64,000 nucleotides of DNA from a bacterium (lineage in GTDB: Bacteria > Patescibacteriota > Dojkabacteria > B142 > OLB20). A model generated the notes under the pieces. It did not search any database and was not told where the DNA came from. It saw only the letters and a program-made list of their open reading frames with translations. The stretch is from NCBI GenBank assembly GCA_021463645.1, contig JAJTYI010000004.1, positions 110,277-174,276 of the forward strand, given 5' to 3'. Made by a program: the position numbers and the translations under genes. Below, in pieces: positions 6,598 to 33,719 of the stretch; the stretch's first letter is position 1; each line of letters starts with the position of its first letter.

Positions 6598-7602
6598 TTA
6601 ATCAATTCTTAAATTATAACCGTCGTCATTATAACACTCTCCAGGGACTCTAACAGATAAGTTTGTAGGTAAGATACTCATATTTGGATGCAATAATGGT
6701 CTAGTTATTGCATAAACAAGTCTTTTAGTCGACTCAGAATCCTTATAAGCACTGTGATAAGTTAATATCAAGTTTGAAAAACCCCTCTTTAAATATTTAA
6801 TATAAGGAGTATTTATCCAGTTGTTAGTTTCGTCAAGCGCTGTATCAATAATCGCTGTCAGACCAGGGTTTTCTTGTAGTACACCCACCAAATCGCCCTC
6901 ATTTACAACGCCTCCACCTGATACGCTTACAAAGAGAGAATCCTTTCCCATCCGTCCTAATTCTTCTTCTCCTATACGATGCTCTGTTTCGGGGAAATGG
7001 GGCAAAGATGCTACTACAACGTCTGAATCTTCAAAAATTCGAAACCAACTTTTTGGAAATATGTTCAATTCTGCTAGTCCTGGTTTCACCCCTCTTTCAT
7101 TAGAATATGAAATGTTAGCATTTGGAAACAGACCTCTAGAATTTCTAGCGAACCTACCGCCTATGCTACCGGTCCCAATCATGCCGATACTCAAATCGGA
7201 ATTATTCTCTCTTAATTTTATATCCTTTCTTGTCTCAATATTAGCAAAAGTATGAAGGTCTCTAGCAAGAAAACTACCAACAGCTTTCAATAAGTAGTTC
7301 ACCACTGCTCGATTCCAGGGGGTATCATTTTCAAAATAAGCAGTACGAATTCCCTCGTTTGATAGTACTTCCAAATCATGATGATTTTGAGGATGTCTAC
7401 CGGGATATAACAACAAACCCGCAATTCTAAGTAATAATGCATCAGGTAGAGCAACAGACGGAGTTTCTAAAACGCTCACACTTCTACCTTCAAATTTCTC
7501 CAGAGAGTCTGTATCTCCTGGTTGTAAATAGGCAACATTGTACCTATCTCTAATATCTTCAGGTATATGCTTAGGACCGAAATAACTTATGAGTTCATTC
7601 AT
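6598..7602 (-). CDS. D-isomer-specific 2-hydroxyacid dehydrogenase family protein
   Basis: 334 aa. NAD-binding GMIGTGSIGGRFA (GxGxxG), then DVVVASLPHFPETEHRIG...LFVSVSGGGVVNEGDL, typical of the family. Its start overlaps the stop of the upstream 1014-aa gene by 8 nt. Confidence 0.65.
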   Translation of the reverse strand: MNELISYFGPKHIPEDIRDRYNVAYLQPGDTDSLEKFEGRSVSVLETPSVALPDALLLRIAGLLLYPGRHPQNHHDLEVLSNEGIRTAYFENDTPWNRAVVNYLLKAVGSFLARDLHTFANIETRKDIKLRENNSDLSIGMIGTGSIGGRFARNSRGLFPNANISYSNERGVKPGLAELNIFPKSWFRIFEDSDVVVASLPHFPETEHRIGEEELGRMGKDSLFVSVSGGGVVNEGDLVGVLQENPGLTAIIDTALDETNNWINTPYIKYLKRGFSNLILTYHSAYKDSESTKRLVYAITRPLLHPNMSILPTNLSVRVPGECYNDDGYNLRID

Positions 7603-10600
7603 GGTAGTAGCCCAAATCAGTTAAGTGTTTCAATATATTCCTGGGTTGGTGGAATTTCCTGAACTCGCCGTTTAGTAAAACGTCGTCCATATCCATAATA
7701 ACTAGATCTCCAGGCACCAAGTTTGTCAGTCTTTCAGAATATCCATCTAAAGGGCCTTCAACGTGTATCATCTGTACATTCATTACGCCATGCTTATTGC
7801 AAATTTCATTAAACTTTCTGAGATTCTCCAAATCATTATCAATTACGTAAATTGTCCCGTGTTGGCTCCACTCCTCGATTCTTTTTTCGACAACGCCCAG
7901 CTTGTCAGGATGTGCTATAAATTCTATGCCTGTATGTTCGGCAAAGATTTGATTTGCCAGTCTTTCTAGACCAGATAATTCGTAACGAAGACGTTGTTCT
8001 TCGGTCATTGCGTAATTACCTATCCTTGGGTAGTCCTCAACTACAGAATCACCAGCAGTCCAAATTATTGATGAAACATCACCAGCATTAGTGATTTGAC
8101 TAAGTAGGTTTCCAACACCAGCATTCAGCCATGCTTGAGGCTTTTTCTCCTGAAAAGCATCACTTTCTTCAACTCTGCTTAACTTCTCGCGCACGATTCC
8201 TGGTATAGCAGGGTATGTAGAAGCGGCGATTCTAAATTGATTGATGAATGCAGTCTTATTCGATAATGCAATGTCGGTTAGTAAACCCTCCTGGGAAGCA
8301 TAGATCCAAAATCCTTCTGCTGCTGCATCAAGATTGAAATAACCAGTTTCGTTTTTAGCAAATTCCCAAGCTTGATTTAAAACCGTTTTGAATTGGGTGT
8401 CTTGAATTGTGATTTCCATATATTCAATTAATTCAACTTCATCAACAAATCGTGATATTTTCTCAGGATCTTTACGTCTTTTTACTATACTTCCATCCGA
8501 TTTAACTTTTATCATGGTTTCGTCAAATTCAACAGACGACTCTAAGTCCAATCCCTCAACTTGGATTCCGTTATTCCTCAGTATTTCTAACGTTTGATTT
8601 ATATTTGAACTAGAAAGCCCTCCAGCCAAATATTTTCTCTTTGAGATTCCTCCTAGAACTCTTACTAGTTGTTCGATATCCCCTTGCTCCCCAGTTCCAC
8701 CTTTTTTCTTTGAATCAACTAGAACCGCATCCACATTTGTATCAGAATTCAATTCAAAAATTTTTCGATCTAAATCATCTTCATCCAGGGCAACCATCTG
8801 TACGATTGAAATTTCATTTTCAAATCCAGCTTTTAATTCTTCCCTGATGGAATTGACCAATTCGGCATCATAATCACCTTGTAACTGGAGGGTTACTTTT
8901 TGCTGACTTCCACTTGGAATAACTCTTCTTAATATTCTTATAGCTTCGTCTGAACTTTTAGGTCTCATCAGTAGGAATAGGTTAGTTTCTATTCCACTTT
9001 CGTCAAGATAATCTATCATGTCTCTTATAGGATTTAATTCGAGCCATGGTAAGGGTAAATCCCGGTCACTGTAAAAATCGTGTACTTTATTCATCTTTAT
9101 AGCTACTCTCGGATCATCGATTCCTAGTGCTTTTCTCTTGTACTCTTCTGGGGTGTAAGTTAAATGTATTCCGAAATTTCTAACCCCAGAGAGCAAACAT
9201 GCTTGGGCATCATAGATGTTGTGAACTCCACATACTTTTATTTCTGCTTCCGTTCTACTTTCCTGAGTTTTCGAATCCACCTCATCTCGCTCTATTGGAG
9301 AATCTTCCGCATTTGCGGTTCTATTATAATTTCTGCGTAGGACACCCTGTCTTTCAATTTTAAGCATTTGACGATCTGGAGATAGTAGACCCGCACCTCT
9401 CGTTATAGGTACGAATCCAACTGAACATTCATTCACCATCGGATTAGGCACAAGTTGAACGTTACCTGGGCTTGACTTTAATTGAATTCTTATCGGATCT
9501 GCCTCTACTACTCTACAAATAACATTTTCTGCACCTGAATTACTAATTATATTTTCTGCAAGTGCCAAAGTACGTCCAGTATTGCTGTTGTCATCGACAA
9601 ATAATACTTTCTTTCCTTTGAATTCAATCCCATTTGATTTTATGTAATCTTCAATGTCGTCTTTGGTAGTTTCCTCGTCATCCCTTTTAACTGATGCAGA
9701 GTGAGTAGAAATTGGAAGTAACTCCAATTGTCTTTCTCTATTGGGATTTTTAATTTTATATAGGAGATCTGTAACTATTGCGGTTTCGCTTCCTCCCGAT
9801 GGAGCACCAACAACCACATCAATTTCAGGATGCTTGTCTGTAACCAAGTCTGCAAATGCTAGTACTTTCAGAGAGTTTTCAATTTCTGGCATCTTGAAAA
9901 CCACATCATCCCGTCCCAATAAATCGTTTGTAATATCATCAACAATAGAAAGTATTTCTGCTGAATTAATTTCAACTCCTGACTTATGGCCAAGCAAAGT
10001 TAAATAGTACTCCTGGGTAATATTAACCATAGAGTTAAAAATCCTCTCTCTCCTTTCTATGTACTCTGCATTTTCAGTTAATTCATACCTATCTTTATAT
10101 GTGTATGAATGATATAGAGTGCTTATATGGTTACGTAAATGGTCAATCATTCCGAGATATTGTAGATAATTTACATCGTCATATCCCTCAGAAAGTTGCG
10201 CTATTGCATCATTAACATCTTCTTTTATGACTTCTAACTTCCACTGTGTGGGAACACTTGAGTCTACAGAAATATAATATCTCGCTCCTTTATGGGTGGG
10301 TTTTTGACCAGGAAAAGCGTCTAACCTTCCATCTTTCTGATAGTATGGTAACAATCCAGTATCAGATTCATCAGAGTCTAAGTTCTTACCTAATTTATAA
10401 CTCCCTCGTAATCCTACTTGATTATTAGATAAATCAAAATCTCGAAGAGAAGATTTATTCCCCCAAATCGAACCTAGACCTAATTTTTCCCTTTGGTTAC
10501 TGCTATTATTTTCAACAACATTGACTACTCCAGTTACATAGGAGTGTAGGTCGGCATATTTTAAGTCTAATTGCACTGAATTACTTGGTGCAAAAAAGGG

Positions 10601-18109: not shown

Positions 18110-18406
18110 ATGAAGGTTGAGTACGCTACCAAAAGAGTAGAAAAGAAGTTTACAAAGTATTTACAGGGTACTGAATTTTCCGACAAAATTAAACAGAGGA
18201 TAATGGAATTAAAAGCAGCACCGAATTTATTGGTAATAGACAAAATGAAGTTTCCAGAATTGCATAAATTAAGGGGAGAAAAAAAAGGACTGATGTCCAT
18301 CAAAGTAAAAAAGAATTGGAAAATTATATTTAGGGCAAGAGATTCGTTTGACAACTATGCTGAAGTGAAGGCTCTTGAATTAATTGATTTTGAAGATTAC
18401 CATTAA
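18110..18406 (+). CDS. higB: HigB-like toxin (RelE/ParE superfamily, 'plasmid maintenance system killer')
   Basis: 98 aa. ...PELHKLRGEKKGLMSIKVKKNWKIIFRARD...VKALELIDFEDYH matches the HigB pattern LH-x-L-x-G-x(3)-G-x-W-S-I-x(5)-W-R-I-x-F ... DYH. A TATAAT lies at 18066-18071. Confidence 0.7.
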   Translation: MKVEYATKRVEKKFTKYLQGTEFSDKIKQRIMELKAAPNLLVIDKMKFPELHKLRGEKKGLMSIKVKKNWKIIFRARDSFDNYAEVKALELIDFEDYH

Positions 18407-18407
18407 T

Positions 18408-19502
18408 ATGGCTATTGAAATAGATACAACACAATTTAATATACCTCCGGGAAAAACTTTAAAGGAACAAATAAAGTATTTGGGTATGTCACAGAAGGAA
18501 TTGTCTGAAAGGATGGGGATTACCGAGAAAGCTGTTAGCCATATTATTACTGGTAAAGTAGCAGTTAGTTTAGATACTGCACTTAAATTAGAGACAATAC
18601 TTGGGATAGATGCTGATTTTTGGCTTAACTTAGAAGCTAATTACCAGATTAATAAGGCTAAAAACACAGAAACAATAATAGATAATACTGAATTAGAATT
18701 AGCAAAACTTTATACATGCTATAAATTTTTAGTTAGAAGAAACCTTGTACAAAGTAGTAGGAATTATGTTGTTAGAGTTCGAGAATTAAGAAGTTTTTTT
18801 GGAGTTTCCAATCTAGCATATATATCCAAATTAGATTATGGCGCGGCTTTCAGAAAGTCGGATTACAAAGAACTAGATAGATATGCATTGAGTATACTAC
18901 TCCGAATTGGAGAGATTGAAGCCAATGAGATGTTGGTAGGTAGTTATGACGCGATACTTCTTAAACAGTCTTTAAAAGAAATAAAGAAATTAACGAGATT
19001 AGATTTAAGTGTAGCCTTAAAAGAACTTAAGAATCTATTTGATCGTGCAGGATTAAAAATTGTCTATACTCCATTCATTCCGAATACTATGGTGAACGGG
19101 GTTGTTAAATGGATGGGAAGTACTCCTGTTATACAAATGACTGATTTTAGGAAATCAGCTGATATATTTTGGTTTACCTTATTTCATGAATTAGGGCATG
19201 TATTATTGCATGCTAATAAAAAGACACGATATGTGGATTCGTATGACATTAAAGTGGATTCTCAGGAGGAACAAGAGGCTGACAATTTTGCACAAAATGA
19301 ACTAATACCAAAAGAACAGTATGCACTGTTTCTTAAAGAAGGAAATTTCTTTGAAGCAGCAATTAATAGATTTGCAAAGAAAATTGGTATTTCACCAGAT
19401 ATTGTTGCTGGAAGACTTGCGTATGATAGGCAAGTTGATAGTTTTGGGTTTGAATTCGCGCATAAATACAGGAGAGCTCTTGACTTCGAAGTTATGTTAT
19501 AA
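18408..19502 (+). CDS. HigA-like XRE HTH antitoxin fused to an ImmA/IrrE (M78) zinc-metallopeptidase domain
   Basis: The ATG at 18408 lies 1 nt after the higB stop. The N-terminus LKEQIKYLGMSQKELSERMGITEKAVSHIITGK is an HTH. The C-terminal half has the HEXXH motif FHELGHVLLH. Confidence 0.7.
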   Translation: MAIEIDTTQFNIPPGKTLKEQIKYLGMSQKELSERMGITEKAVSHIITGKVAVSLDTALKLETILGIDADFWLNLEANYQINKAKNTETIIDNTELELAKLYTCYKFLVRRNLVQSSRNYVVRVRELRSFFGVSNLAYISKLDYGAAFRKSDYKELDRYALSILLRIGEIEANEMLVGSYDAILLKQSLKEIKKLTRLDLSVALKELKNLFDRAGLKIVYTPFIPNTMVNGVVKWMGSTPVIQMTDFRKSADIFWFTLFHELGHVLLHANKKTRYVDSYDIKVDSQEEQEADNFAQNELIPKEQYALFLKEGNFFEAAINRFAKKIGISPDIVAGRLAYDRQVDSFGFEFAHKYRRALDFEVML

Positions 19503-19525
19503 ATGAATTATAATCATTGACTGAA

Positions 19526-19544
19526 AGCGTTTATAATAAACGCT
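19526..19544 (+). terminator. Stem-loop downstream of the higA-like gene
   Basis: AGCGTTTA-TAA-TAAACGCT, a perfect 8-bp stem 24 nt after the stop. There is no clear U-tract, so terminator function is tentative. Confidence 0.35.
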
Positions 19545-19700
19545 ACAAGATATTGCTTGCTTCGTTTTAATTAATAATTTTGTTGCCGAGCTATTGCAAT
19601 GAGTTGATTGGTATAAAAAATGATAAGAATATTCCGCCGTAAGTGAAGATACGGAAAGACAATTAAATAGTTGGAAAGTTAATATTTAAAAAAAACTAAG

Positions 19701-19892
19701 ATGAAGAGAAATCAAGATATTCCTTCAATGAACCTTAATGACCTTGCTAGAGTAATTGGCAATGAAAGAGAATTCAGTAAATATGGGAAAGAAAAGAAGA
19801 CTGAAGATAAGCGTGCATTTAAAGATGAGAAAGGTATTTTTAGAGAGATGTCGGATAAGTTAGGAAAAGGTAAAATTATTGTGTCTGATTAA
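19701..19892 (+). CDS. Small K/E-rich hypothetical protein
   Basis: 63-aa ORF directly upstream of the HEPN-motif gene. Low complexity and no motif. Confidence 0.3.
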   Translation: MKRNQDIPSMNLNDLARVIGNEREFSKYGKEKKTEDKRAFKDEKGIFREMSDKLGKGKIIVSD

Positions 19893-19923
19893 TTATGGAA
19901 TTAGGATTAAAACTTCTGAACTT

Positions 19924-21186
19924 ATGCATAAAGCCGCTAAGACAAAACTTGACGATTTCCTAGAAGTAGTAAAAGTATACGAAGGTATTAGTGCCTTCTG
20001 GTTTTTTCACAAGTCTACAGAAAATTGTTTAAAACCCTTATACGAAGTATTGAAGAGTATTAACCCCTCAATTCAAGACTTTATACAAGAAGAGGATATA
20101 GGCTTTATTATTTGTGATGAAATTACTAAACACCTAAGAACGAAGACTGAAGTAAGTGGAAAAATTTCTACCATCGAACGCTGGCAAAAGTACTTCAATA
20201 GTGATGAAATAGAACCTATGAAATCCAAAATAATGAGGATGTTGGATAGTATACCATTAGAATACAAATTAATACTTACGCTTGGAGAATCTTCATGTGA
20301 AGGTTTTAAAAACCTATCACTTGAAATGGGGCAGGGCTTGAATTTAGTTGGAGTTGATCCCAAAGCTTTGCCAATTGTAGGAGAATTAGGTATCTACCCA
20401 AGACTATCGGCAGAATACTATGAGGAGAGAGTTTTAAGAAGTGGAAGCCATCTAGCAATAATAAAACACTTTAAAGGATATACACAAAATGCTAAAGAGA
20501 CATATAGTGTTAACAAGGCTCTAGAAAGTATTGATATGTTTATTTCACTTGGAATCATCTTTGGTCTTTTCGCAATTAGAAAACAGTTTATTGTAGATCT
20601 GGTGTCACAAAAGTATATTACTATTGTAAATAAAAATAATAAATTTGTCGGTCTCTTTAACTTACCTTACGATAAATCAAAAACTTTGCACAACCTGATT
20701 ATTATTGACAGGAATAATTTTGCATCAGAAGTTATTCATAAAACTAAACATATAAATAGTTATCTAGATCTATTGACTAACAAAATGAATGAAGATGCTA
20801 AAGAATTTACTAATAAAATCAATAATATTCTTTACTGGTTCCTAACGGGTACTACATCGACTAATCAAACCCTTGGATTCATAAGTTTAATGACATGTTT
20901 TGAAAGTTGCTATTCAGGACCAGATGAATCAAGGGAAAAAGATCAAACCTTAACAAAAAAGGCAAGTTATTTTATTGCCTTTCATTATGGTGAAAGGAGA
21001 CAGATATATTTAGATCTAGAAAAGATAAGGATTCTTAGGAATAAAGTGATCCATGAGGGGTTTAAACTAGAGTCGGATGAAGATCTCTTATTGAAATCAA
21101 TCCTAATAGAATACCTAAAGACAACGATAGCTAAAGAATTGATAATGTACCTGGATAATAAAGCCTCTTCAAACGAAGTAATCTAG
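19924..21186 (+). CDS. Hypothetical protein with C-terminal HEPN-like Rx4H motif
   Basis: The track ORF starts at TTG 19879 and the first ATG is at 19924 (420 aa). The C-terminal ~130 aa is helical and carries EKIRILRNKVIHEG (R-x4-H), as in Abi/Apea-type HEPN RNases. Confidence 0.5.
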   Translation: MHKAAKTKLDDFLEVVKVYEGISAFWFFHKSTENCLKPLYEVLKSINPSIQDFIQEEDIGFIICDEITKHLRTKTEVSGKISTIERWQKYFNSDEIEPMKSKIMRMLDSIPLEYKLILTLGESSCEGFKNLSLEMGQGLNLVGVDPKALPIVGELGIYPRLSAEYYEERVLRSGSHLAIIKHFKGYTQNAKETYSVNKALESIDMFISLGIIFGLFAIRKQFIVDLVSQKYITIVNKNNKFVGLFNLPYDKSKTLHNLIIIDRNNFASEVIHKTKHINSYLDLLTNKMNEDAKEFTNKINNILYWFLTGTTSTNQTLGFISLMTCFESCYSGPDESREKDQTLTKKASYFIAFHYGERRQIYLDLEKIRILRNKVIHEGFKLESDEDLLLKSILIEYLKTTIAKELIMYLDNKASSNEVI

Positions 21187-21387
21187 TTTCTTTTTATAAA
21201 CCACAGCCAGTACTTGCAGTTCCGCTACATCCAGTCTCCTCTCTGCACTCTCTATTTTGGAAATAAACGATTGTGGTTTACCTAATTTCTTTGCCACTTG
21301 TGCTTGTGTTAGATTTGCTTCTATACGAGCTTGTTTTAATCTTACAGCGACCTTCTTATAGGCTTTGGAGTGAAGCGGATTGGGCAT
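21169..21387 (-). CDS. XRE-family HTH transcriptional regulator
   Basis: 72 aa. RLKQARIEANLTQAQVAKKLGKPQSFISKIESAERRLDVAEL is a classic HTH_3 pattern. The 3' end overlaps the HEPN-motif gene convergently by 18 nt. Confidence 0.75.
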   Translation of the reverse strand: MPNPLHSKAYKKVAVRLKQARIEANLTQAQVAKKLGKPQSFISKIESAERRLDVAELQVLAVVYKKKLDYFV

Positions 21388-21479
21388 GAGTATTATTGAT
21401 TATTAATCAATCTCATGTTAGTATCCTGATATCGGATATCCCAAAATAGGATATTAATTTATTTATTATTTTAAAAATC

Positions 21480-22025
21480 ATGAGGAAGAAAACAGCAGTA
21501 TTAATTTTTACATTAGTAATCTTCTCTTTACTACTTATGGGTTGTAGTGGGTCTTCGGGAGTGGATGTCAATAACCAAGGAGAGAAAGTAGATAATCAGG
21601 GGGTTTCTCCAACACAAATACAACCGGTACAAACTAAGTTCAAACAGAATGAAAGAATAAAACTAGGAGATTATGTAGTTATAGCTCAGTCATATACTGC
21701 TAGTCACACAGGAACAAATGAATTTGATCAACCTAAGGCTGGAAATAAATATGTAGCTGTGGAGGTCTTATACGAGAATTATACTAGTGATAAAACTATC
21801 TCTTATAATCCATATGACTGGAAGTTAATAGATTCGGAAGGGTACAATTACGAATATAGCTTTTTAGGAGCGAAAGAACCAGGGCTAAGTAGTGGAGATA
21901 TAAATCCATCAAGCAAGGTCAGAGGTTGGCTAACTTTTGAAGTTCCTACAAATTCACAGGAGCATGTTTTAAAGTTTACTCCTAGTTTTTGGAGTAATGA
22001 GAACATTGAAATAGAACTCTTTTAA
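21480..22025 (+). CDS. Lipoprotein, DUF4352-like (immunoglobulin-like telomeric-protein fold family)
   Basis: 181 aa. Lipobox LLLMGCSG. GNKYVAVEVLYENYTSDKTISYNPYDWKLIDSEGYNY...VRGWLTFEVP is the DUF4352 pattern. Confidence 0.55.
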   Translation: MRKKTAVLIFTLVIFSLLLMGCSGSSGVDVNNQGEKVDNQGVSPTQIQPVQTKFKQNERIKLGDYVVIAQSYTASHTGTNEFDQPKAGNKYVAVEVLYENYTSDKTISYNPYDWKLIDSEGYNYEYSFLGAKEPGLSSGDINPSSKVRGWLTFEVPTNSQEHVLKFTPSFWSNENIEIELF

Positions 22026-22055
22026 ATACCTGAGATGGTCTAAAGTCTTATTAGA

Positions 22056-22064
22056 TGGTATAAT
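22056..22064 (+). promoter_or_regulatory. Extended -10 promoter element TGGTATAAT
   Basis: Ends 22 nt upstream of the ATG at 22087. Confidence 0.4.
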
Positions 22065-22086
22065 TGGCTAAGAATTCCAATGTATA

Positions 22087-23268
22087 ATGAGTTTCAATGT
22101 CAAACCAATAAAATTAAATAAGTGGCATATAATTATTGTTCTATTACTTATTGTCTTACCTCAGGTTGTTCTCCCCGCACTTCTTATTTGGTGGTTCTAT
22201 AAAAAAGCTCCTATTGCAAAAAAATATAAAATAGTTACTACTCTTGTCGTAGGTGGTTTGTTCACACTTATAACTGCTTCCACAGTTATAGCCTATACAA
22301 TGGATGCTGAACCCGATTTAAACATAATTGAGCCCAATAATAATATAAGTATTGAGGCAGAGGGAATTTTAATTAAAGGTGAATATACACCCGAAGATAG
22401 GAAAGTCTGGATAAACAATGAAGAAATAGAAACAGATAATGGTCACTTTGAGTATTATTATAAGCTTTCTAGTGGTCTGAATGAGATTGAAATCGAAGCA
22501 GGTGATTGGAAGAGAGCAACAAAAAATTTAACGGTCACAAGGATACAAAAAGAGAGCATCAAAACAACTACAACTGAGATGCCGCAGATATTGTTTTTGG
22601 TTACAGAAGTTGTAGATGGTGATACCGTTAAGGTAAGTAGCGATGAAGGAGTAAGTACAGTTAGATTAATAGGAATCGATACTCCAGAAACAAAAGATCC
22701 CAGAACCACCGTACAATGTTTTGGTAATGAGGCCACAGCCTATCTAAAAAGCTTAATCGAAGGGAAATCAATATACTTACACACAGACGATTCGCAAGAC
22801 GATACTGATCAATACGGTCGGTTGTTAAGATACATTGTTCTAGAAGATGGTACAGAGATTAATAAAAAAATGGTCTCGGAGGGTTATGCGTATGAATACA
22901 CTTACCAAGTAGCATATCAGTATCAAAATGAGTTTAAAGCTGCTCAGGAACAAGCCAGGGAGCAGGAAAAAGGCTTGTGGGCAGAAAATACATGCTCAGG
23001 ACAAAGAGAACTTCCAACCCCTGTTCCTAGTTTAATACCAACAACAAGTGCTCCTCTACCATTAATAGGTAATCAGAGTAAACCAACCACAAAGCCAGCT
23101 ACGCCAACAAAAGCTCCTACAAATAACTCTGGCTTTACTTGTAATTGTGCAAAGACTTGCACGCAAATCACTTCCTGTTCAGAGGCATATTTTCAATTAA
23201 ATGAGTGTGGTTGTAAGGTAAGAGATTCAGATGATGATGGAATTCCTTGTGAAACCTTATGCCAATAA
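22087..23268 (+). CDS. Membrane-anchored thermonuclease (SNase) with C-terminal Excalibur Ca-binding domain
   Basis: 393 aa. Two N-terminal TM helices. SNase core VVDGDTVKV...VRLIGIDTPETKDP...CFGNEATAYLKSLI...YGRLLRYI...MVSEGYAY. A P/T linker precedes the C-terminal CNCAKTCTQITSCSEAY...DSDDDGIPCETLC. Confidence 0.8.
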   Translation: MSFNVKPIKLNKWHIIIVLLLIVLPQVVLPALLIWWFYKKAPIAKKYKIVTTLVVGGLFTLITASTVIAYTMDAEPDLNIIEPNNNISIEAEGILIKGEYTPEDRKVWINNEEIETDNGHFEYYYKLSSGLNEIEIEAGDWKRATKNLTVTRIQKESIKTTTTEMPQILFLVTEVVDGDTVKVSSDEGVSTVRLIGIDTPETKDPRTTVQCFGNEATAYLKSLIEGKSIYLHTDDSQDDTDQYGRLLRYIVLEDGTEINKKMVSEGYAYEYTYQVAYQYQNEFKAAQEQAREQEKGLWAENTCSGQRELPTPVPSLIPTTSAPLPLIGNQSKPTTKPATPTKAPTNNSGFTCNCAKTCTQITSCSEAYFQLNECGCKVRDSDDDGIPCETLCQ

Positions 23269-23404
23269 TTGAAATTTTGGCGAGATTATAGGAGTTTAAA
23301 AGCATGTATAGGCAAAATAGGATCGAATCGCACACCTCTCGAATTTTGTAAATTGCACAAAATGCAGACCTTAAAAGAGGGGAATTAGTTTTTAGAATCA
23401 AATA

Positions 23405-25051
23405 ATGATTGTCTTGGAAGATACTTACATGCAAAAACTGATGAAATATGGGGAACTAAAAGCTGAAGATTATTTACGGAGTAAGAAGAAAATATTTAGT
23501 GATGAACAACCTATCTATATAGTTTATGTTAGAAAATCTACTAAAGGAGAGGAGAAACAAGAAAGAAGCATTCCCGATCAACTGAAGCTTTGCAAAAAAA
23601 TAAGTACAGAGAAAAAGCTTAAGGTATATGATTTCTATGAGGAGAAAGGTAGTGCATTCATTTCCGATAATCGTCCAGTATTCCGTCAGATACTGAACCA
23701 CATTTCAAAATCTGGTGGTAGAAAATATAACTCTATCCTTGCATTTTCTCCAGATAGGTTATCCAGAAATATGAAAGAGGCAGGTGAGATTATTGACCTG
23801 CTTCACAGAGGTCAGATGATAGATTTACAGTTTTCCTCTTTCCCGTTTATGAATAATTCAGATGGTTTGATGAGTTTAGGGATTCATTTTGTATTAGCAA
23901 AGCAGTATTCAGACAATGTTTCTATGCATACAAATAAAGGTATTGATGGAACTGTAGAAGAAGGGAAAGGTTTAGCTCATCCAAAATGGGGATATAAATT
24001 TGCTTCAGAAGACTTACGACTTTTTCGACCGGATGGAAGAAATTTCCATCTTATACAAAAAGCTTTTATTCATGCTTTGGAAGTTAAATCCTTAGAAGAA
24101 ATTGCGGTCTTTCTTAATACTGAAGGATTTGAATTTAAAGGAAAGAAGATAATAGTTACTAAGAATAGACTGTCATCGATGTTTGCTAATCCATTTTATG
24201 CAGGTGTTTATGTATCGGGAAGTAAGGTTATAGAGATGGGAAAAGCTGATCCATTATTTGAGCCTGTGATGTCACCTAAGGACTTCTTTCGTATAAGAGA
24301 GCTATATAAGGATAGGAACCATAATTTGAAGCCCAATATTAACAATTTCCTCTTAAGAGGTATGGTATTTTGCAATTATTGCCAAAAAGAAATGAAGCCA
24401 GGGAAGCCTAAAGGAAATGGCGGAAGGTATCTAAGATTTGCATGCACTAATAAAAGATGCCCTAGGCATACTGAACTTGTAAAAGGGACTGCAAAGAAGT
24501 TTAAACGAGAGATTCGGGCAAAGATAATCTTTGAGTTTGTCGATAAGATACTAAAAGATGGCATCAAGGTAGACCAAAAACTGTATAGTAAATTCCTTAA
24601 AGCCGGGCAAGAAGATGCAGTTTATCAACTCAATAAGTTAGAACAAGACTTAAAAATCACTAGGAAAAAGATTACTGAAACTAACAATAAAATTAACTCT
24701 AAATTAGAGATGTTTGAAAGAGCAGAAAAGAAGGATGTCGGGAAGAGAATTGAAAAGCAAATACAGGAACTTGAAGAGGAGTTAACTAAGCTTTTAGATA
24801 TGGAAATCAAGCTTGAAACAGATCTCCAGAAAGCTAAGGAGGCATTAAAGCAGAGTCCTATCTTATATGAAGATTTTGTGAACTTGTTCGAATACTCAAA
24901 TGGGGTAATACAAAACAGTGATAATCAGTACTTGGTTGACTGGATGCTTAGACAGGTATTTATGAACTTCTATGTTGATAGTACCAATGTTGTTACATAT
25001 CAACTAAATCCAATGTTTGAGAACTATCTTAAAGTAGATATGTTTTTTTGA
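23405..25051 (+). CDS. Large serine recombinase
   Basis: 548 aa. Resolvase N-domain IYIVYVRKSTKGEEKQERSIPDQL...FSPDRLSRN. Zn-ribbon CNYCQ...FACTNKRCPRH, followed by a coiled-coil. The start may be Met9 (23429). Confidence 0.85.
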   Translation: MIVLEDTYMQKLMKYGELKAEDYLRSKKKIFSDEQPIYIVYVRKSTKGEEKQERSIPDQLKLCKKISTEKKLKVYDFYEEKGSAFISDNRPVFRQILNHISKSGGRKYNSILAFSPDRLSRNMKEAGEIIDLLHRGQMIDLQFSSFPFMNNSDGLMSLGIHFVLAKQYSDNVSMHTNKGIDGTVEEGKGLAHPKWGYKFASEDLRLFRPDGRNFHLIQKAFIHALEVKSLEEIAVFLNTEGFEFKGKKIIVTKNRLSSMFANPFYAGVYVSGSKVIEMGKADPLFEPVMSPKDFFRIRELYKDRNHNLKPNINNFLLRGMVFCNYCQKEMKPGKPKGNGGRYLRFACTNKRCPRHTELVKGTAKKFKREIRAKIIFEFVDKILKDGIKVDQKLYSKFLKAGQEDAVYQLNKLEQDLKITRKKITETNNKINSKLEMFERAEKKDVGKRIEKQIQELEEELTKLLDMEIKLETDLQKAKEALKQSPILYEDFVNLFEYSNGVIQNSDNQYLVDWMLRQVFMNFYVDSTNVVTYQLNPMFENYLKVDMFF

Positions 25052-25163
25052 GAGTTTGATTGGATTTAAGTTAATTGATGAAATGGGGTGGTCATGCCTA
25101 CGCTAAAGCTACGGCAGACCTTACCCAGTGTATTTCTTCGCAAGCTCAGAAACACTGGGGTGG
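25022..25163 (+). repeat. 141-bp direct repeat, right copy (attR-like), includes last 30 nt of the recombinase gene and the structured unit
   Basis: Matches 17752-17892 with 2 mismatches. Contains TGGGGTGG at 25084-25091 and again at 25156-25163. Confidence 0.9.
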
Positions 25164-25233
25164 CAAATGGGACTCGAACCCACGACCTCCTCTTCCACAG
25201 AGAGGCGCTCTAACCAACTGAGCTATGATCACC
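25156..25233 (-). tRNA. tRNA-His(GTG)-like second copy with 3 substitutions in the 5' acceptor strand (possible pseudo-tRNA / att duplication)
   Basis: Identical to 33337-33414 except that the 5' end reads GGTGATCA instead of GGTGGCAA. This gives two acceptor-stem mismatches (A4.C69, C6.T67) and one T5.G68 wobble. It has its own upstream TATAAT (complement of 25247-25252). Confidence 0.6.
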
Positions 25234-25431
25234 AAATTCATCACCAATTATAACAAATTCCCCACAAGCTCACAAAATAGGCTTATCCCACCCAATGTGT
25301 TAGAATGAAGCAGGATTTAAGTATAAATGAGTTGCTTTTTTTGTCGAGACGTATTTTGTCATAGGAAGTTGTAATTATTAACCTCCTCTAAAGTCTCCAC
25401 TTTACGAATTTTAATCATTAGGTTGATATAT

Positions 25432-33060: not shown

Positions 33061-33339
33061 TATGAAGAATTACGAGCCAAATGGAACAAACAGAAAAAGA
33101 AACACGAGGATAAACTTGAAAGGATTAGCCAAGCAGACGAAGAGTATTATATTACCTCTGCAATGCTACTTGAGCTTGCGTCGAGAAGTTACGAACTATT
33201 TATGGGTTCTGAACCTGAACAAAAAAGGCGACTTATTACCCTTACACTTCAAAACCTAACCATAAAAGATGGAAAACTGCAGTATGACTGGATAAAACCT
33301 TTCGATTCTATCTTCAATTCTGCTAAGAGTCACGAATGG
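33061..33339 (+). pseudogene. Remnant of a large-serine-recombinase C-terminus (copy 2), reading straight into tRNA-His
   Basis: Translates YEELRAKWNKQKKKHEDKLERISQADEEYYITSAMLLELASRSYELFMGSEPEQKRRLITLTLQNLTIKDGKLQYDWIKPFDSIFNSAKSHEWGG. There is no catalytic N-domain or Zn ribbon upstream. The coiled-coil tail resembles tails of large serine recombinases. Confidence 0.5.
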
Positions 33340-33414
33340 GGTGGCAAATGGGACTCGAACCCACGACCTCCTCTTCCACAGAGAGGCGCTCTAACCAACT
33401 GAGCTATTGCCACC
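33337..33414 (-). tRNA. tRNA-His (anticodon GTG), CCA encoded
   Basis: The reverse complement reads G(-1)-GTGGCAA-TA-GCTC-AGTTGGTTA-GAGC-G-CCTCT-CTGTGGA-AGAGG-AGGTC-GTGGG-TTCGAGT-CCCAT-TTGCCAC-C-CCA. It has a perfect 7-bp acceptor stem, an extra 5' G opposite C73 (His identity element) and anticodon GTG. Confidence 0.9.
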
Positions 33415-33654
33415 ATCTTTGATAAATTCTTTTATCAATTCCCTCCATTGACCAGTTTTTAATTCTTTTTCTCTATCGATTGCCTCTTCCTTGGTTCTGA
33501 ACATTTCTTTATAAACTAACTCAAAAGGTATTCTGGTCTTTGTTGATTTCACTTTACCAAGATTGTGTTCACTCACCCTCTTATCAATGTCTTTGGTGTA
33601 ACCAGTATACAACTTTTGATCCTTTTTGCTTTGAATTATGTATATATAAAACAT
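33391..33654 (-). CDS. GIY-YIG nuclease superfamily protein
   Basis: 87 aa. MFYIYIIQSKKDQKLYTGYTKDIDKRVSEHNLGK...ELVYKEMFRTKEEAIDREKELK is the canonical small GIY-YIG (URI) pattern. The last 8 codons (DGGNSSVG*) are a translation of the tRNA-His 5' end. Confidence 0.85.
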   Translation of the reverse strand: MFYIYIIQSKKDQKLYTGYTKDIDKRVSEHNLGKVKSTKTRIPFELVYKEMFRTKEEAIDREKELKTGQWRELIKEFIKDGGNSSVG

Positions 33655-33668
33655 TTTATCAAATAAAT

Positions 33669-33719
33669 CGGCGCTCCCTGCCTGCCGGCAGGCAGGTAAC
33701 CAACTGAACTACAACCACC
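33669..33719 (-). pseudogene. Degenerate duplicate of a tRNA 5' segment (acceptor + D arm) interrupted by a 20-bp palindrome
   Basis: The reverse complement reads GGTGGTTGTAGTTCAGTTGGTTA-[CCTGCCTGCCGGCAGGCAGG]-GAGCGCCG. Compare GGTGGCAATAGCTCAGTTGGTTA-GAGCGCC of the intact tRNA. Confidence 0.6.
33677..33696. repeat. Perfect 20-bp GC-rich palindrome CCTGCCTGCCGGCAGGCAGG
   Basis: Self-complementary and 80% GC in an AT-rich context. It sits exactly in the D-loop position of the tRNA fragment. Confidence 0.9.

Follow-up and report, generated by a model that had tools for sequence, protein, structure and literature searches.

What is the large open reading frame (ORF) at 19879-21186 of this stretch for, and does it need the two small genes that crowd it on either side? 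The window, by which we mean the whole 64,000-nt stretch of contig JAJTYI010000004.1 (assembly GCA_021463645.1) of a bacterium of the Dojkabacteria lineage, carries a 7.16-kb integrative element at 17886-25044, and the ORF lies inside that element between orf63, which encodes a K/E-rich protein of 63 aa, and a convergent gene for a 72-aa XRE regulator. An earlier first-pass annotation of the letters had taken the ORF for a HEPN-motif protein and had proposed that it may form a stand-alone or three-component defense or addiction module carried by a mobile element. The analysis presented here favors the stand-alone form; we put at roughly 55% the probability that the gene encodes a self-contained, single-protein HEPN ribonuclease that is triggered by infection and acts as an exchangeable anti-phage cassette.

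The gene and its parts are laid out as follows.

19879-21186, plus strand: large ORF, 435 aa from a TTG and 420 aa from the ATG at 19924.
19924-21186, plus strand: gene for the 420-aa two-module protein (N-terminal alpha/beta module and C-terminal ApeA-like HEPN module, from the ORF, the family search and the AlphaFold2 model); putative unit of swapped cargo, from the breakpoint at 19922/19923.
19924-20709, plus strand: N-terminal domain (residues 1-262), without known relatives and putatively a sensor or regulatory domain (limits from the AlphaFold2 secondary structure).
20710-21183, plus strand: C-terminal all-helical HEPN domain, residues 263-420 (profile matches and AlphaFold2).
21037-21054, plus strand: R-x4-H catalytic motif R372-N-K-V-I-H377 (conservation and alignment to Ec2ApeA).

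The ORF and its R-x4-H motif (LEKIRILRNKVIHEG; R372 is encoded at nt 21037-21039, H377 at nt 21052-21054) are present as the first-pass annotation had described them; its TTG-extended start of 435 aa is rejected. The homologues start where the ATG lies (MHK.../MEK...), and the backbone shared with a sister element ends at 19922, one base short of this codon, so that the real start is the ATG at 19924.

By sequence comparison, the protein is a member of a rare, unnamed family that has no match to annotated families. An exhaustive HMMER search of 1.84 billion protein cluster representatives at a cut-off of E<1e-3 returned 43 representatives, five of them at E<1e-10, and many of the 43 matches span most of the length of the matched protein; a word-indexed search of 5.8 billion proteins found nothing beyond the query protein, with the family profile as well. 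The 39 members that entered the alignment are 383-458 aa long and 15-31% identical to the query, and these lengths together with the near-full-length matches indicate a real but rare family of two-domain proteins. Members occur in DNA of 32-63% G+C, so that the family is not confined to the candidate phyla radiation (CPR). The protein itself has no meaningful match in Pfam, NCBIfam, PHROGs or PADLOC, its single sequence matches nothing among the PDB sequences, and the plasmid and phage collections hold no match to it; a contig scan that used the four closest homologues yielded no confirmed locus, and a hidden Markov model search of 80 CPR loci collected via AtpA found no family member. Because the family goes unrecognized by every annotation and defense library that was tried, automated surveys miss it, and the PADLOC run that the first-pass annotation had advised did not return the protein as a known defense gene at E<=0.1.

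A bare R-x4-H is trivial by chance. Here the arginine and histidine, whose conservation the first-pass annotation had left to be checked, are invariant in 39/39 homologues, as are M1, W305, E327 and R358, with R346 and Y369 nearly so; since R372 and H377 are held together with W305, E327 and R358 among homologues of 15-31% identity, the motif is not a chance occurrence.

Which nuclease family the motif belongs to is answered by a profile of the C-terminal 159 residues of the family alignment (profile A4), run against the PDB sequences. It matches the solved ApeA proteins, with E-values of 5.9e-7 for Ec2ApeA (9hxd), 1.1e-4 for Ec3ApeA and 1.7e-3 for Ec4ApeA, and places R372/H377 on R502/H507 of Ec2ApeA. 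The match falls in two blocks, a helix that ends in a conserved glutamate (...LE.L) and the helix I-Y-x2-R-x-x-I-V-H-x-G, and the profile score is lower for the R502A chain, R502A being the catalytic mutant of the ApeA structural study (bioRxiv 10.64898/2026.01.26.701840). When the C-terminal domains alone are compared with defense and domain models, 15/39 members match PADLOC DzbB (Dazbog) weakly (best E=7.7e-6), and a few of the 39 match the CARF_HEPN, Csx1 and Cas13a models, likewise weakly. The invariant motif, the ApeA profile match with its catalytic residues aligned, and the CARF-HEPN, Csx1 and Cas13a matches together make it very probable that the C-terminal ~160 residues are a HEPN domain, as had been proposed at first pass; HEPN membership is established at the level of sequence, and fold comparison did not confirm it.

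AlphaFold2, run with the family alignment, gives a full-length model with a predicted local distance difference test (pLDDT) score of 88.8 and a predicted template modeling (pTM) score of 0.90, and models the C-terminal domain alone with six helices at a pLDDT of 88.1. The full model is helical over residues ~1-110, alpha/beta over ~111-262 and made of six helices over 263-420. P111, Y114 and G185 of the N-terminal domain are invariant in the family. This region, in which the first-pass annotation had recognized no motif, indeed matches no family in Pfam, NCBIfam, PHROGs or PADLOC; its profile has no match among the PDB sequences at E<=10, ApeA included, and the full-length family profile aligns to Ec4ApeA in its C-terminal part only.

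How close, then, is the protein to systems already described? ApeA is a single-gene HEPN anti-phage system with cryo-EM structures 9HXB-9HXM (bioRxiv 10.64898/2026.01.26.701840), and the window protein is like it in being a single protein from a stand-alone gene, in joining an orphan N-terminal region to a HEPN domain at the C terminus, and in the alignment of the conserved glutamate helix and the Y-x2-R-x4-H-x-G helix with its catalytic pair. It differs from ApeA in size, at 420 aa against ~590 aa, and in the distance from the conserved glutamate to the catalytic arginine, which is 44-49 residues in all 39 members and ~120 in Ec2ApeA, where the first aligned block stops at 383 and the next starts at 489, about 105 residues apart; the short spacing implies that the ApeA-specific insertions of ~100 residues are missing from the HEPN domain of the window protein. 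Its N-terminal 260 residues have no detected sequence similarity to the N-terminal and Mid domains of ApeA, and the ApeA and HEPN_Apea models are absent from the Pfam, NCBIfam and PADLOC matches of the protein at E<=0.1 and from the models listed for the 39 members. The protein is thus best described, on these comparisons, as an ApeA-like single-protein HEPN effector that departs from ApeA in three respects: the family models, the insertions and the N-terminal region.

The other HEPN systems stand further off. DzbB (PADLOC PDLC03836) is the best-matching defense-database model for the C-terminal domain of the family, but the window protein itself falls short of the E=0.1 threshold for this model. 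Dazbog is a two-gene system that contains a DUF262 protein (PMC10952713), and no DUF262 is found among the window neighbors that were scanned or among the Pfam annotations listed for the fetched homologue loci. CARF-HEPN proteins (Csm6/Csx1) and Cas13 have the R-x4-H catalytic helix in common with the window protein; with an unrelated N-terminal domain and neither a CARF domain nor a CRISPR context, it is rejected as a CARF-HEPN member. The HepT/MNT and AbiF/AbiD toxins, from toxin-antitoxin systems and systems with RNA antitoxins, likewise combine a HEPN ribonuclease fold with a role in growth arrest. HepT is a small toxin (~130-150 aa), whereas the window protein has 420 aa and a large extra domain; only two family members have a HepT-like match, a weak one (E=0.022), and with the protein too large and no MNT nucleotidyltransferase among the adjacent genes scanned with Pfam, this membership is rejected as well. 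So is an AbiF-type assignment, as the protein has no Abi_2 match in Pfam, the region 17700-25300 has no relevant tandem repeats that could encode an RNA antitoxin, and no Rfam family other than tRNA lies near the gene.

Whether the gene works alone is best judged from the element that carries it, whose features are these.

17746-17899: left 154-nt direct repeat, the last 14 nt of which are the 3' end of a tRNA-His (repeat search; 95% identical to the right copy).
17886-25044: integrative element of 7.16 kb, 99.47% identical over 7,160 nt in L006-L010.
18110-18406, plus strand: HigB-like toxin gene, which opens the backbone module (Pfam HigB-like_toxin 1.8e-6; PHROG 3066, a toxin-antitoxin toxin, 7e-10).
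18408-19502, plus strand: second backbone-module gene, encoding a HigA-type helix-turn-helix domain in fusion with an M78 (ImmA/IrrE) peptidase (PADLOC PD-Lambda-2_B 6.1e-37; Pfam Peptidase_M78 and HTH_3; NCBIfam antidote_HigA 4.5e-19; 364 aa as called in L006).
19701-19892, plus strand: orf63, gene for the 63-aa K/E-rich protein, seemingly element backbone rather than a HEPN-specific partner (a copy precedes other cargo in L016-L018).
19923-22035: variable slot holding the HEPN, XRE and DUF4352 genes (blastn of L016 against the window).
21169-21387, minus strand: gene for the 72-aa XRE/HTH_3 regulator (Pfam HTH_3 8.8e-15).
21480-22025, plus strand: DUF4352 lipoprotein-like gene (Pfam DUF4352 4.4e-25).
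22087-23268, plus strand: gene for an SNase-family nuclease, membrane-anchored or secreted, that has an Excalibur domain (SNase 8.6e-28, Excalibur 1.3e-3), part of the backbone and kept in L016.
23405-25051, plus strand: large serine recombinase, the integrase of the element (Pfam Resolvase, Recombinase, Zn_ribbon_recom).
25016-25169: right 154-nt direct repeat, running into the tRNA-His (repeat search).
25156-25232, minus strand: tRNA-His(gtg) beside the recombinase end, the integration target (ARAGORN; Rfam tRNA 56.7 bits).

The near-identical copies L006-L010 lie on metagenome contigs, two of them labeled wastewater, and their left flanks differ. In L007, L010 and the sister element L016 the element abuts a tRNA-His next to sequence that flanks the second tRNA-His of the window (33337-33413); this sequence comes after the abutting tRNA-His in L007 and L010 and before it in L016. 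With different flanks and another copy of the tRNA-His in use, the element appears to be mobile, in keeping with the location on a mobile element that had been suggested at first pass. Comparison with L016 by blastn separates backbone from cargo: 17886-19922 is 97.3% and 22036-25044 is 96.5% identical, so that the HigB-like gene, the HigA-M78 gene, orf63, the SNase gene and the recombinase are all retained, and the left breakpoint between backbone and cargo falls at 19922/19923, one base before the HEPN ATG. The slot of L016 (10201-12421) holds two overlapping plus-strand genes, whose unrelated products have 289 and 193 aa, together with a convergent minus-strand gene for a membrane-like protein of 169 aa, and has no sequence matching the window slot at 19923-22035 other than a relic of the XRE gene. 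The L016 cargo has no known family, PDB match or similarity to the HEPN domain of the window, though its 193-aa protein carries an R-x4-H (RCGLVH). On these alignments, the HEPN gene occupies the cargo slot as an exchangeable cassette, and the element is one that inserts at tRNA-His genes of wastewater Candidatus Dojkabacteria (CPR).

The same comparison bears on the two small neighbors, both of which lie where the first-pass annotation had placed them: orf63 overlaps the TTG extension by 14 nt and ends 31 nt before the ATG, and the XRE gene converges on the HEPN gene with an 18-nt 3' overlap and diverges from the DUF4352 gene. No family in Pfam, NCBIfam, PHROGs or PADLOC matches orf63. It is nonetheless probably a real gene: against the 97%-identical copy in L016, which was used for the coding test since the 99.5%-identical copies hold too few substitutions, it shows 18 substitutions, no disruption of the frame and a pN/pS of 0.32 (HigB 0.28, HigA-M78 0.22). 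In L016-L018 its product is still 63 aa long and 84% identical in amino acids, with unrelated cargo behind the gene, and this retention leads us to reject it as a dedicated antitoxin; it fits better with the PD-lambda-2-like HigB/HigA-peptidase module upstream. For the XRE gene, L016 preserves a ~95-nt relic of the 3' end after the gene for the 193-aa protein, starting near the position of the HEPN stop codon. A relic beside other cargo suggests that the XRE gene was there before the exchange and that only the HEPN ORF was swapped; as the last HEPN codons read into the XRE gene antisense, the 18-nt overlap can be explained as an accident of insertion. With this relic, and with no homologue near five other family members, the XRE protein is rejected as a dedicated regulator of the HEPN gene, and is most simply a neighboring regulator, that of the divergent DUF4352 gene. 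Two palindromic stretches, CATGAG..ATTGATTATTAATCAAT..CTCATG and ATCCTGATATCGGAT, lie at 21385-21457 in the 92-nt gap between the XRE and DUF4352 genes and look like putative operators for the XRE protein.

The neighborhoods of other family members point the same way. The closest homologues P0002, P0003 and P0004 and the distant P0012 and P0042 have no conserved neighbor in common, and tblastn found neither orf63 nor the XRE gene to have a homologue at any of these five loci; contexts of other members include an integrase/AlpA island, a HigB/HTH pair with NERD-UvrD, HD and large helicase genes, and an RHS toxin locus. Both these loci and the replacement of the HEPN gene in L016 behind a retained orf63, the latter decisively, favor a stand-alone gene that would need neither orf63 nor the XRE gene. 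Of the alternatives left side by side at first pass, the stand-alone form is thus upheld, and the three-component form is not, on the evidence of the homologue neighborhoods, the cargo swap and the XRE relic.

Several findings weigh against a self-contained immune nuclease. The link to ApeA comes from a profile match that scores 32 bits and falls into two stretches, and the window protein itself matches no ApeA, HEPN or defense model at E<=0.1. Foldseek gave no significant match for the full model against the PDB and BFVD or for the C-terminal model against the PDB, where nothing reached E<0.1 and the HEPN structures 4nqf (TMq 0.46) and 2hsb (TMq 0.36) both scored E>1; no ApeA entry is among the Foldseek matches listed. 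The distant member P0010 has a gene for 60 aa only 3 nt upstream, which leaves a small partner possible for some members, and several homologues lie among housekeeping or unannotated genes.

How such a protein might act can be outlined by analogy with ApeA and from the general properties of HEPN domains (PMC3710099). The HEPN domains would dimerize and thereby form a composite R372/H377 active site, and the N-terminal domain would keep the protein inactive until it senses a cue derived from infection. The activated protein would then cut cellular or viral RNA (ApeA acts on tRNA anticodon loops), and this cleavage would arrest translation, so that the infection aborts and phage growth stops. 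We infer the ribonuclease activity, the dimerization, the trigger and the defense phenotype alike from these comparisons. If this function is true, the protein would add a compact relative to the ApeA/DzbB group of HEPN defense nucleases, and its candidate sensor domain, which has no known counterpart, would be useful for asking how HEPN effectors are switched on; the element itself is a concrete and clearly delimited case, from a bacterium of the CPR, of a mobile element that has a slot for exchangeable cargo. Far more tentative, and in our view rather doubtful, is the wider proposal that the protein founds an as yet unrecognized family of HEPN immune nucleases, compact, single-protein and related to ApeA, in which the N-terminal sensor fold would be new, and that episymbiotic CPR bacteria (Candidatus Dojkabacteria) would trade them as plug-in cassettes, placed behind a PD-lambda-2-like switch on a tRNA-His-targeting mini-island of 7 kb.

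That switch raises the question of whether the HEPN gene is governed by the backbone in front of it. The segment 18110-19892 has the three-gene layout of PD-lambda-2, with a HigB-like gene, a HigA-HTH-peptidase gene and a small third gene, and PD-lambda-2 is a validated three-gene defense system of this layout (PMC9519451). Nearly the whole length of the HigA-M78 protein is covered by its match to PD-Lambda-2_B (6e-37), and it also matches the RmrA and CapP models; the HigB-like protein and orf63, in contrast, have no PADLOC match to PD-Lambda-2_A or _C. Judged from its gene content, the segment may be a defense or addiction module of the element itself. It could also respond to infection or damage as a switch like CapH/CapP or ImmR/ImmA, with whatever cassette occupies the slot as its output; the 198-nt and 30-nt spacers are kept along with the module and orf63 directly upstream of two different cargos on the same strand, and just past the HigA-M78 stop codon, by 24 nt, a perfect 9+1+9 palindrome, AGCGTTTAT-A-ATAAACGCT at 19526-19544, overlaps a TATAAT and could be a putative operator or terminator. 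Expression of the HEPN gene may, speculatively, start in the backbone upstream of orf63. The scan for promoters and terminators, however, gave nothing above the shuffled background, and homologues elsewhere work without such a module; together with the missing PD-Lambda-2_A and _C matches, this makes control by the backbone an unlikely account of the gene.

No better placed is a role outside immunity, with the protein serving as a HEPN ribonuclease, or as a catalytically silent HEPN fold, in addiction to the element or in RNA processing, or having a specific functional tie to tRNA-His. HEPN domains do occur in toxin-antitoxin toxins and RNA-processing enzymes (PMC3710099), several homologues stand in housekeeping contexts, and for all three of the closest members whose downstream DNA is known, a tRNA-His follows within 4 kb, at 79 nt, 317 nt and 3.97 kb, with no att-like repeats flanking P0002 or P0003. 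Yet tRNA genes are common integration hot spots, and the present element targets tRNA-His; an inherited integration hot spot is the simple explanation of this proximity, a functional tie to tRNA-His being possible. The catalytic residues are strictly conserved, and the nearest characterized relatives, ApeA and DzbB, are defense proteins, so that a non-immune role seems improbable to us as well. Least probable of the three is a toxin-antitoxin or abortive-infection module in which a HEPN toxin is paired with orf63 as antitoxin or adaptor and with the convergent XRE protein as transcriptional regulator: the tight packing of the genes (31 nt from orf63 to the ATG and the 18-nt overlap), the position of HEPN, XRE and DUF4352 genes together inside the segment that differs from L016, and the small gene directly upstream of P0010 speak for it, but orf63 persists at 84% identity before unrelated cargo, the XRE relic remains next to the L016 cargo, and five other members, the solitary closest homologues included, have no orf63 or XRE homologue nearby.

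Some further observations concern the surroundings of the element. A third copy of the direct repeat, 64% identical, lies at 12201-12354 and suggests a second island in tandem at 12.2-17.9 kb. This putative island has a NERD-domain gene and four unknown genes and no recombinase of its own; the four-gene same-strand cluster at 14285-17767 (312, 299, 215 and 330 aa) has no Pfam match, and the three of its proteins that were scanned with PADLOC have no significant match. The tRNA-His(gtg) gene beside the element (25156-25232) scores 56.7 bits with Rfam against 70.3 bits for that at 33337-33413, and its acceptor stem has two mismatches and a G-U wobble; the element-side copy may thus be defective. 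The family of element variants inserts at both tRNA-His copies in different strains. At the locus L003 (9638-9662 and 9943-9967, corresponding to ~33394-33708 of the window), a gene for an 87-aa GIY-YIG protein beside tRNA-His has 25 nt of the tRNA 5' end duplicated exactly on its two sides, which gives it the look of a small insertion in the tRNA gene.

Host relatedness is indicated by AtpA, which is 97% identical in amino acids to that of the Candidatus Dojkabacteria (WS6, CPR) metagenome-assembled genome HKST-UBA15, and by the region, which is 90% identical to it in DNA. The window has ~35% G+C. Outside the element, the minus-strand gene at 7595-10639 encodes a 1,013-aa protein that joins phosphoribosyltransferase and PRA-isomerase domains to long unannotated regions, an unusual fusion.

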